This document shows positions 28,808-31,800 of a stretch of DNA of 64,000 nt, in pieces (within the stretch, counting starts at the first letter, position 1; each line of letters opens with the position of its first letter). Made by a program: the position numbers. This stretch comes from Escherichia coli (GTDB taxonomy: Bacteria > Pseudomonadota > Gammaproteobacteria > Enterobacterales > Enterobacteriaceae): the NCBI RefSeq assembly GCF_041886205.1, contig NZ_CP169029.1; one strand, written 5' to 3'.

Positions 28808-31800
28808 TTATTGTCCTGCGAGTTGCTGAAGGGCTGTGATGACATGGTCGGCATCGGCGGTAGTCATATCCGGGAACAGCGGCAAAGAACAGATGCGTTC
28901 GCTATTCCATTCGGTATTCGGTAACGACAGCGTGGGAAAACGCTCGCGATAATATTTTTGTGTGTGAGCGGCGCGGAAATGTAACCCGGTACCAATGCCT
29001 CTTTCTTTTAACGCTTCCATCAACGCATCGCGACTGATACCACAACGTTGTTCATCGACACGAATAATAAACAGATGCCAGGCGTGAACGTGCGGCCAGG
29101 CGGGAAGGCTTAATGGCTGAAAGGGGAGAGCTGCCAGTGCTTGCTGATATTGCTGGGCAATTTCGCGCCGACGGGTGTTGAGGTGCTCTAATTTGACTAA
29201 CTGTGTCAGGGCAATCGCGGCGTTAATATCGGTCAGATTGTACTTATAGCCCGGTGTTAAGACTTCAGCCTGCGGTGCACGGCCCCAGGTTTGTCTGTCA
29301 TAGGCATCGACACCCAGACCGTGAAATTTCAGCATCCGTAGCTGGCGGGCAAGGTTTTCATTATCAGTTACAATCAGGCCACCTTCAGCACAGGTAATAT
29401 TTTTAATGGCATGAAATGAAAAAATAGCGGTACCTTTTGCGCCAATATGTCGCCCTTTGTAATACGTACCGACGGCATGGGCAGCATCTTCGATAACTGC
29501 GATGCCGTAACGTTCGCCAATGGCGCGAATGGCGTCAATATCTGCTGGCGCACCGGCATAATGCACCGGAATGATGGCTTTAGTGCGTGGCGTAATGGCT
29601 GACTCGATAGCTTCAGGCGTGACCATCAGCGTATCGCGGTCGACATCCACCATTACCGGCGTTGCACCCAACAAGGAAATCATATTGAGGGTTGAAACCC
29701 AGGTCAGGGAAGGCGTAATCACTTCATCGCCCTTGCCAATTTTCAACGCCATTAGCGTGATATGCATTCCGGCGGTGGCTGAACTGACCGCGATGGCATG
29801 CTGATTTCCCGTCAACTGGCAAAAGGCTTGCTCAAGCGCCTGATTCTTCGGACCGGTTGTGATCCAACCGGATTCGAGAACCTCTTTAACTGCAGCGAGT
29901 TCCTCCACGCCCATTGCTGGTCGCGAAAAAGGCAAAAATTCTGACATTGCTTTTCCTTCCGCCATTGAATACCTGTCCACTTATATTTGCTATAAAGAGT
30001 GTTGTGTATATTTTGCCATTTAGAGCGAAATTTTAAGGATAGAATATTAACTTAACCTTAAGAAACTAATATTAGACGTAAATATTGAAATTTTTATATT
30101 TTTTCTTATTTAGGCTTTGCATTTGGCAAAATTTTGAGGCATTTTGCCAGCATCGTAGGATTTTTAATATTACACCAATTGCTAATTATCGCCAGAAATG
30201 TCGCTCAATTTCACGGTAATTGTCTGGTTGCGCTTGTCTATAGGTGGAGTTTACGTGTTAGCTTTTTGCCGCTCTTCGTTGAAGTCAAAAAAATATATCA
30301 TTATTTTACTGGCGCTCGCTGCAATTGCCGGACTGGGTACTCATGCCGCCTGGAGTAGCAATGGTTTGCCACGTATCGACAATAAAACGCTGGCCAGACT
30401 GGCACAGCAGCACCCGGTTGTCGTTTTGTTTCGCCATGCTGAACGTTGCGATCGTTCAACCAATCAATGCTTGTCAGATAAAACAGGTATTACGGTCAAA
30501 GGTACCCAGGATGCCCGTGAACTGGGCAACGCTTTTAGTGCTGATATCCCTGATTTCGATCTTTATTCCAGTAATACCGTCCGGACCATTCAGTCCGCGA
30601 CCTGGTTTTCAGCGGGTAAAAAGCTCACGGTAGATAAACGACTTCTTCAATGCGGTAATGAGATCTATAGTGCAATTAAAGACTTACAAAGCAAAGCACC
30701 TGATAAAAATATCGTTATTTTTACCCATAATCATTGCCTGACATATATTGCTAAAGATAAGCGTGATGCGACATTTAAACCTGATTATCTGGATGGTTTA
30801 GTCATGCATGTGGAAAAAGGCAAAGTTTATCTGGATGGGGAATTCGTTAACCACTAAATTTTCAATCTGACAGCCAGTGATGGCTGTCATCATTGTTAAA
30901 GAAGACCTTTCAAACGTAACGTTTTTCGGGTGGCAACATTCAAATCATAATGCACCAGATCTTCAGGTTTTACCCACGCGTAGTCCTGAAACTCTTCGTT
31001 TATTTTCACTTCTCGGTTGGCAGAAACGCAGTCAAAAATCAGGTAAATCATATAAATCTCTTCCTTGCGACCATCTGCATACGTCTTGGTGCGAATATCA
31101 TCGCTGAAGGTCCACGGCGTGATTTCTGTCAAAAGCAGCTGTTCTCCCAGTTCTTCGCGAATTTCGCGGCGTAGTGCCTCTTCAATTCGTTCGCCAGGTT
31201 CTACGCCGCCACCCGAAAGCGCCCATTGACCGGGGAAAACGCCGCGATCGTCGGCCATTTTGCACAGCAAATAAGCACCATCATTTTGAATCAAAGGGCA
31301 TACAATAGTCCGTTGTCGCACAGGAGTATTCCTTATAAATAAAAAAGAAACCATGAGAATACGGTAACTCAGAAATATGTGAAAGTGACAGTAATCTCTT
31401 TTGCGATGATAACTGCACTTATTATTATTTTTGTGTGTATCGATAAAGTGTGTTTATTTTTTCGGCGTTTAATTATTTAAGAAGTATTTAGTTACAATAA
31501 GTGACTAGATCCCTTTTTTCGCTCATTGAATCCTCTGTGCCAGGCAGTACAATCCCGCAGCTTTGGGAATTTTGATTAATTGCTTGTGGGAAAGGGGATA
31601 ATGAAAAAAATTGCGCTAGCAGGTCTGGCCGGAATGCTGTTGGTTTCTGCATCGGTCAATGCAATGAGCATCAGCGGCCAGGCGGGTAAAGAATACACCA
31701 ATATTGGTGTCGGTTTTGGGACTGAATCGACGGGCCTGGCGTTAAGCGGTAACTGGACACATAACGACGACGACGGTGACGTCGCTGGCGTGGGGCTGGG

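Follow-up and report, generated by a model that had tools for sequence, protein, structure and literature searches.

A PmrA/BasR box in the arnB promoter of Escherichia coli and its possible sharing with the divergent ais gene

Introduction

The PmrA box upstream of arnB acts as the switch that turns on modification of lipid A with Ara4N, which is the principal chromosomal means by which enteric bacteria come to tolerate polymyxin and colistin. In Klebsiella pneumoniae, the corresponding pbgP box, CTTAAT-ATTAT-CCTAAG, has been footprinted, and its complex with PmrA solved by crystallography (structure 4S05) and cryo-EM. It is bound by a PmrA dimer in head-to-tail arrangement and stands in for the -35 element. 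The PmrA footprint on this promoter spans -22 to -91, its promoter-proximal edge being at -22. In the cryo-EM activation complex, the pbgP sequence runs to -13, with the -10 element from -12 onward, and the scaffold included AT-rich sequence upstream of the PmrA box. K. pneumoniae has in addition a PhoP box, with a second promoter that depends on PhoP, features reportedly absent from E. coli, Shigella and Salmonella. In Salmonella, the verified PmrA boxes are described in the structural paper as CTTAAG-N5-XTTAAT.

Within the wider OmpR/PhoB family, promoters with a PhoB pho box are built like the arnB promoter, in that the activator site replaces the -35 element and region 4 of sigma is contacted by the activator, but they differ from it in half-site sequence and in regulator. 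Pho boxes are tandem direct repeats with a periodicity of about 11 bp, lying about 10 bp upstream of the -10 element. Another kind of relationship is found at ilvY-ilvC, where two divergent promoters are coupled through supercoiling. As to BasR itself, SELEX work was reportedly done by Ogasawara in 2012.

In E. coli MG1655, a ParnB-gfp plasmid reporter was induced by iron and by pH 5.8, and induction was lost without pmrA. In 2023, a study of atypical EPEC recognized, in front of the arn operon, a PmrA consensus "with a slight modification", and the 60-mer oligonucleotide used there for EMSA, which includes exactly the 17-mer box considered below, was shifted by the phosphorylated form of QseB, a paralogue of PmrA (PMC10729948). 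QseB ChIP-on-chip in strain UTI89 recovered the arnBCADTEF promoter, and arnB mRNA was 2.16-fold lower in a qseB mutant. Given the published EPEC sequence, the pmrA-dependent reporter and these QseB data, the arnB box is an already known element, and the E. coli sequence adds nothing new to it. The divergent gene ais is a member of the same regulon for which no box of its own is found, and it is on this side that the comparison of genomes proved informative.

Results

The sequence analysed is a stretch of 64,000 nt of E. coli DNA, called the window, and all positions refer to it. Its region 29700-30600 was compared with complete E. coli genomes and found a match in 5418 of 5426, the match being 100% to one strain, 504239. 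Gene calls are those of the RefSeq annotation of matching E. coli genomes. By these calls, the minus strand carries arnB and the plus strand ais, in agreement with the divergent arrangement given in the original prediction. Beyond arnB come arnCADTEF, pmrD and men genes, and beyond ais come nudI, yfaZ and yfaY. The arnB-ais intergenic region has a GC content of 32%. Two starts have been used for arnB (Table 1), and in alignments the conserved AAGGA Shine-Dalgarno sequence precedes the RefSeq one. The box had been placed about 80 bp upstream of the arnB start, which is right for the older ATG (80 nt), whereas the distance to the RefSeq ATG is 98 nt.

Table 1. Genes and predicted control elements in the arnB-ais region (window coordinates).
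Feature	Position	Strand	Details
arnB CDS	28808..29947	-	379 codons; RefSeq start ATG 29947; first gene of arnBCADTEF
arnB, older start	ATG 29965	-	385 codons
arnB 5' leader	29948..30020	-	conserved Shine-Dalgarno AAGGA at 29958..29954 (alignments)
predicted arnB transcription start	30021..30026, about 30023	-	placed 7 nt downstream of the -10 hexamer
predicted arnB -10 hexamer TAAAAT	30030..30035	-	10 nt downstream of the box
PmrA/BasR box CTTAAG-GTTAA-GTTAAT	30046..30062	-	half-site 1, 30062..30057; half-site 2, 30051..30046; predicted -39..-23 of the arnB promoter
spacer, box to ais core promoter	30063..30116	.	54 nt, AT-rich
candidate ais core promoter	30117..30145	+	-35-like TTGCAT 30117-30122; 17-nt spacer; -10-like CATTTT 30140-30145; predicted start about 30152
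ais (pmrG) CDS	30255..30857	+	GTG start at 30255

The box reads CTTAAGGTTAAGTTAAT on the minus strand, exactly as originally given. It had been described as a match to YTTAAK-N5-YTTAAK. The 6-5-6 repeat is indeed there, but the strict consensus is missed by one base, a G at position 12. The second hexamer opens with G where Y is required, and the window accordingly contains no match to this consensus. When one mismatch is allowed, five matches are found in the window against 3.2 expected, which is not significant alone, so that this earlier criterion does not single out the box. Position 12 varies among 80 arnB-upstream regions, being C in 42, G in 14, A in 13 and T in 11. The box fits exactly the CTTAAG-N5-XTTAAT form of the verified Salmonella sites. 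The pattern CTTAAK-N6-TTAAK has a single match in the window, which is the box, against 0.07 expected. When the intergenic region is shuffled, it turns up in 0.4% of cases, a share that falls to 0.025% if TAnnnT is also demanded at +10.

We also scored the window with a PmrA matrix derived from 34 distinct arnB-upstream boxes of genera other than Escherichia. The box was the top match in the window, at 20.0 bits against 14.9 bits for the runner-up, in a test that is partly circular, as the training set includes orthologues of the box. In 30 shuffles of the window, the maxima had a mean of 14.5 bits (sd 2.2), and one shuffle reached 20.9.

In Salmonella enterica, the region aligns column for column with the window, and the pbgP (pmrH/arnB) box, CTTAATGTTAATTTAAT, has the same position and the same orientation towards arnB, with TAGGGT coming after a gap of 10 nt. 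The layout is thus shared, as are the divergent ais/pmrG neighbour and the TTGCnn-17-CATTTT block described below, and the differences in this part are two substitutions in the hexamers (CTTAAG/GTTAAT in the window, CTTAAT/TTTAAT in Salmonella) and the -10 sequence itself, TAAAAT in the window. When the intergenic regions of different genera are aligned, no invariant stretch is longer than TCTTAAGG-T-A-TTAA, and the remaining DNA is poorly conserved. Among E. coli genomes, the 39 nt made up of the box and the -10 hexamer are 100% identical in 5227 of 5414, while the surrounding 901 bp are at least 99% identical in only 101.

The distance between box and -10 hexamer is conserved across Enterobacterales. 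We retrieved 80 arnB loci from other Enterobacterales, and spacing was counted in 79 of these plus the window, taking the best box of each region. TAnnnT lies exactly 10 nt 3' of the box in 69 of the 80 regions, and each of the other offsets from 0 to 30 accounts for 0 to 6 cases. In the 14 lineages that were aligned, the T, the A and the final T of the hexamer are invariant. A box in place of the -35 element, at a fixed short gap from the -10, is the arrangement present in E. coli, and it agrees with the footprint edge at -22 and with the cryo-EM scaffold of K. pneumoniae, where the box-to-(-10) spacing is the same.

A scan for sigma-70 consensus promoters gave three weak pairs only. Neither the arnB nor the ais promoter predicted here was among them, nor was any -35/-10 pair found at the arnB site on that strand, as is expected of activator-dependent promoters. 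The E. coli table of transcription starts of Kim 2012, obtained under non-inducing conditions, has no arnB or ais start at the predicted positions.

Two observations concern the arnB leader. A 9-codon open reading frame, MAKYTQHSL, opens a few bases past the predicted arnB start (30019-29990, minus strand). Its ATG is kept in most of the aligned arn-bearing relatives, where its length goes down to 2-5 codons, and a conserved peptide is improbable. In Citrobacter amalonaticus (L008), an insertion of about 210 nt, at about 1790-2000 of that locus, separates the promoter from the Shine-Dalgarno sequence. This insertion presumably contains ERIC/IRU-repeat-like sequences.

On the ais side, the original prediction had reported no second box as good as that of arnB, and our searches lead to the same answer. 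A matrix scan of the intergenic region, together with a comparison of ais-bearing lineages, revealed no second two-hexamer PmrA box near the ais core promoter, and the best other intergenic match scores 11.2 bits and is not conserved. This match, at 30163-30179, corresponds to the TTTAAT-like half-sites that had been pointed out near 30160-30190; its score falls below the shuffle maxima, and these half-sites were rejected. A mirror image of the arnB promoter on the plus strand, with the box followed after 10 nt by TAnnnT, is absent, the hexamer there being TAGACG.

The intergenic region contains a second conserved block, at 30116-30147, which is found only in genomes that have ais. We compared it in 16 ais-bearing lineages, namely Escherichia (three), Salmonella (two), several Citrobacter, Intestinirhabdus and other assemblies; 14 of them were aligned and two were added later. 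Across the 14 lineages of the alignment, TTGC and GCATTTT do not vary, and TTGCnn-17-CATTTT is present in all 16. Each of the two hexamers has only 3 of 6 consensus positions, and the letters that are conserved are those with most weight in -35 and -10 hexamers. From these comparisons we infer that TTGCAT-17-CATTTT is a weak sigma-70 promoter for ais, starting near 30152. Readings of the block as a site for sigma-54, CpxR or PhoP, or as a second half-site, were rejected by eye, the required positions not being conserved across species.

All 16 lineages share one plan: a PmrA box, then 10 nt and TAnnnT facing away from ais, and on the ais side a spacer followed by TTGCnn-17-CATTTT. Box and ais block are separated by 54 nt in 6 lineages, as in the window, and by 44 nt in 7, as in Salmonella, while spacers of 33, 46 and 41 nt were met once each. 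Within the 54-nt and the 44-nt groups, the sequence of the spacer is almost wholly diverged, yet its length is exact, and the three lengths 54, 44 and 33 differ by 10 and 11 nt, that is, by one helical turn. An exact length kept in diverged sequence, and changed by helical turns, speaks for joint action of the box and the ais promoter. The 41-nt spacer belongs to Citrobacter tructae (L086), in which the promoter made of box and -10 faces, instead of arnB, a gene for a 486-residue glycosyltransferase of the PMT family (ArnT-like). In none of the Klebsiella and Raoultella loci retrieved is ais beside arnB. A metagenome scan for the same box-spacer-block pattern returned 120 chance matches, none encoding Ais.

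In five lineages, ais is not beside arnB: C. freundii L085, C. rodentium L087, I. alba L088, L209 and L210. The upstream neighbour is menE or pmrD. These loci are natural variants in which an orphaned promoter has been kept: the PmrA box is retained about 150 nt upstream of ais, and the hexamers found at +10, facing away from ais, are TATATT, TAATAT, TAGAAT, TAATAT and TAGTTT, preceded by 10-nt spacers that share little sequence. The orphan promoters face non-coding DNA, or run antisense to the end of menE or pmrD. Neither a conserved open reading frame, nor an Rfam match, nor a clear terminator was found in the predicted away-facing transcripts of these loci. An Rfam search of the intergenic region of the window likewise gave no match. 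It seems that in the loci without arn genes the promoter itself is kept, and not a product.

Discussion

We consider it very probable that the 17-mer is the PmrA/BasR activator site of the arnB promoter, with PmrA binding to this E. coli DNA as a prediction. The activation proposed originally is supported by the alignment with Salmonella, the K. pneumoniae architecture, the conserved -10 spacing, the pmrA-dependent reporter and the EPEC study. The sequence of the box, its uniqueness in the window, the Salmonella alignment and the -10 spacing come from the present analysis, whereas the binding mode, the replacement of the -35 element and the pmrA-dependence of E. coli arnB are taken from published papers. 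In the resulting scheme, a dimer of phosphorylated PmrA (BasR) would bind the box with its two DNA-binding domains head-to-tail, one per hexamer and 11 bp apart. Bound where a -35 element would otherwise lie, with 10 bp between it and the TAAAAT hexamer downstream, it would recruit sigma-70 RNA polymerase and start arnBCADTEF transcription near 30023, so that Ara4N modification of lipid A would be turned on under Fe3+, mild acid or PmrD input. The AT-rich DNA between the box and the ais block may also assist the arnB promoter in the manner of an UP element.

Other readings of the arnB box have to be weighed against this one. A chance match without function in AT-rich intergenic DNA could be argued from the one-mismatch consensus, which occurs in the window at chance rate, and from the one shuffle in 30 that exceeded the matrix score of the box. 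Against chance stand the position of the box, the Salmonella alignment, the conserved spacing to the -10, and an invariance that extends across genera and over 5,000 E. coli genomes; the conservation data effectively refute this explanation, and we give it practically no weight. The model put forward for atypical EPEC is that PmrA represses the arn promoter from this box by blocking RNA polymerase. In that study, a sigma-70 site was predicted to lie within the box, and arnB and eptA were constitutively upregulated in a strain mutated in both pmrA and qseC (PMC10729948). The phenotype of this mutant can be explained by unchecked phosphorylated QseB, the E. coli arnB reporter loses its induction without pmrA, and a box separated by 10 nt from the -10 is the activating layout of the PmrA transcription activation complex, kept in 69 of 80 arnB promoters; repression is therefore very improbable. 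More serious, although still a minority view for us, is that QseB uses the box, together with PmrA or in its stead, as the gel shift and the UTI89 results described above would suggest. On the other side, the published QseB motif, G(C/T)(G/A)ACAAT(A/T)A-N4-TT, with up to two mismatches allowed, has 37 matches in the window against 32.8 expected, which is chance frequency, and its best intergenic match lies outside the EMSA probe and is partly different in K-12. The arnB reporter depends on pmrA, moreover, and the box fits the PmrA consensus. Shared use of the box by QseB is plausible, and exclusive use is not. The intergenic match just mentioned, GCGATAATTAGCAATT at 30177-30192 of the minus strand, has one mismatch to the QseB motif, and K-12 and B strains deviate from it over part of its length.

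Returning to PmrA as the activator at the arnB box, the comparisons on the other side of the intergenic region lead us to favour, by a small measure, the view that this single box governs the divergent ais promoter, 54 bp away, as well. Two routes can be envisaged. PmrA could act as an upstream activator in a spacing-dependent manner, the centre of the box being near -98 of ais. Alternatively, ais could be coupled to the arnB-side promoter, for instance through the negative supercoiling generated by divergent transcription, as between the ilvY and ilvC promoters: the promoters would stand back to back, about 110-130 bp apart, and one could stimulate the other. Such coupling, if it applies, would explain why a promoter facing away is kept next to ais. 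The full scheme, in which PmrA activates the arnB-side promoter directly and the weak ais promoter depends on the same complex through a spacing-dependent contact or through this supercoiling, is put forward tentatively, and we rather doubt it as a whole. Because the lineages compared are related, they sample no more than about four independent changes in length. The 46- and 41-nt spacers, in two lineages, are out of helical phase, and a centre near -98 is far for a single dimer of the OmpR/PhoB type.

The competing proposal is that ais has a PmrA contact of its own, to which the arnB box is irrelevant, either at the half-site TTTGAGG (30133-30139) or at the weak TTTAAT site. Weaker PmrA footprints over half-boxes have been reported for K. 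pneumoniae pbgP, and TTTAAG is found in the ais spacer of most relatives. At 30133-30139, however, the TTAA core is lost in E. coli and in lineage L214, the TTTAAT site has neither score nor conservation in its favour, and a separate contact leaves unexplained the fixed distance between box and ais where arnB is missing. On balance, we find this proposal unlikely. The change itself lies at 30136: E. coli, including K-12 and B, has TTTGAGG, where E. albertii, Escherichia sp. E1V33, Salmonella and several Citrobacter have TTTAAGG, so that the PmrA-like TTAA half-site is gone from the spacer of the candidate ais promoter in E. coli. Lineage L214 also has TTGAGG at the equivalent place.

If one box does serve two promoters, this would explain both why ais never has its own box and why loci without arn genes keep the box and the -10. 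The orphan promoters would fit with a need for a PmrA-polymerase complex there before the ais promoter can fire, supercoiling being one possible link; they would equally fit with a source of antisense or small RNA without sequence conservation. The value of a box shared by arnB and ais is modest, in that it offers a cheaply testable account of a regulon member without a box of its own.

Elsewhere in the window, another one-mismatch PmrA-like match, TTTAAGAAGTATTTAGT, is present at 31476-31492 of the plus strand, abutting the TACAAT -10 of a yfaZ start in the table of Kim 2012. It is probably due to chance, because its spacing is unfit for a PmrA promoter. Finally, the Rfam nuoG RNA motif (RF01748) is found at 69-111 on the plus strand, with 50.3 bits against a gathering score of 33.
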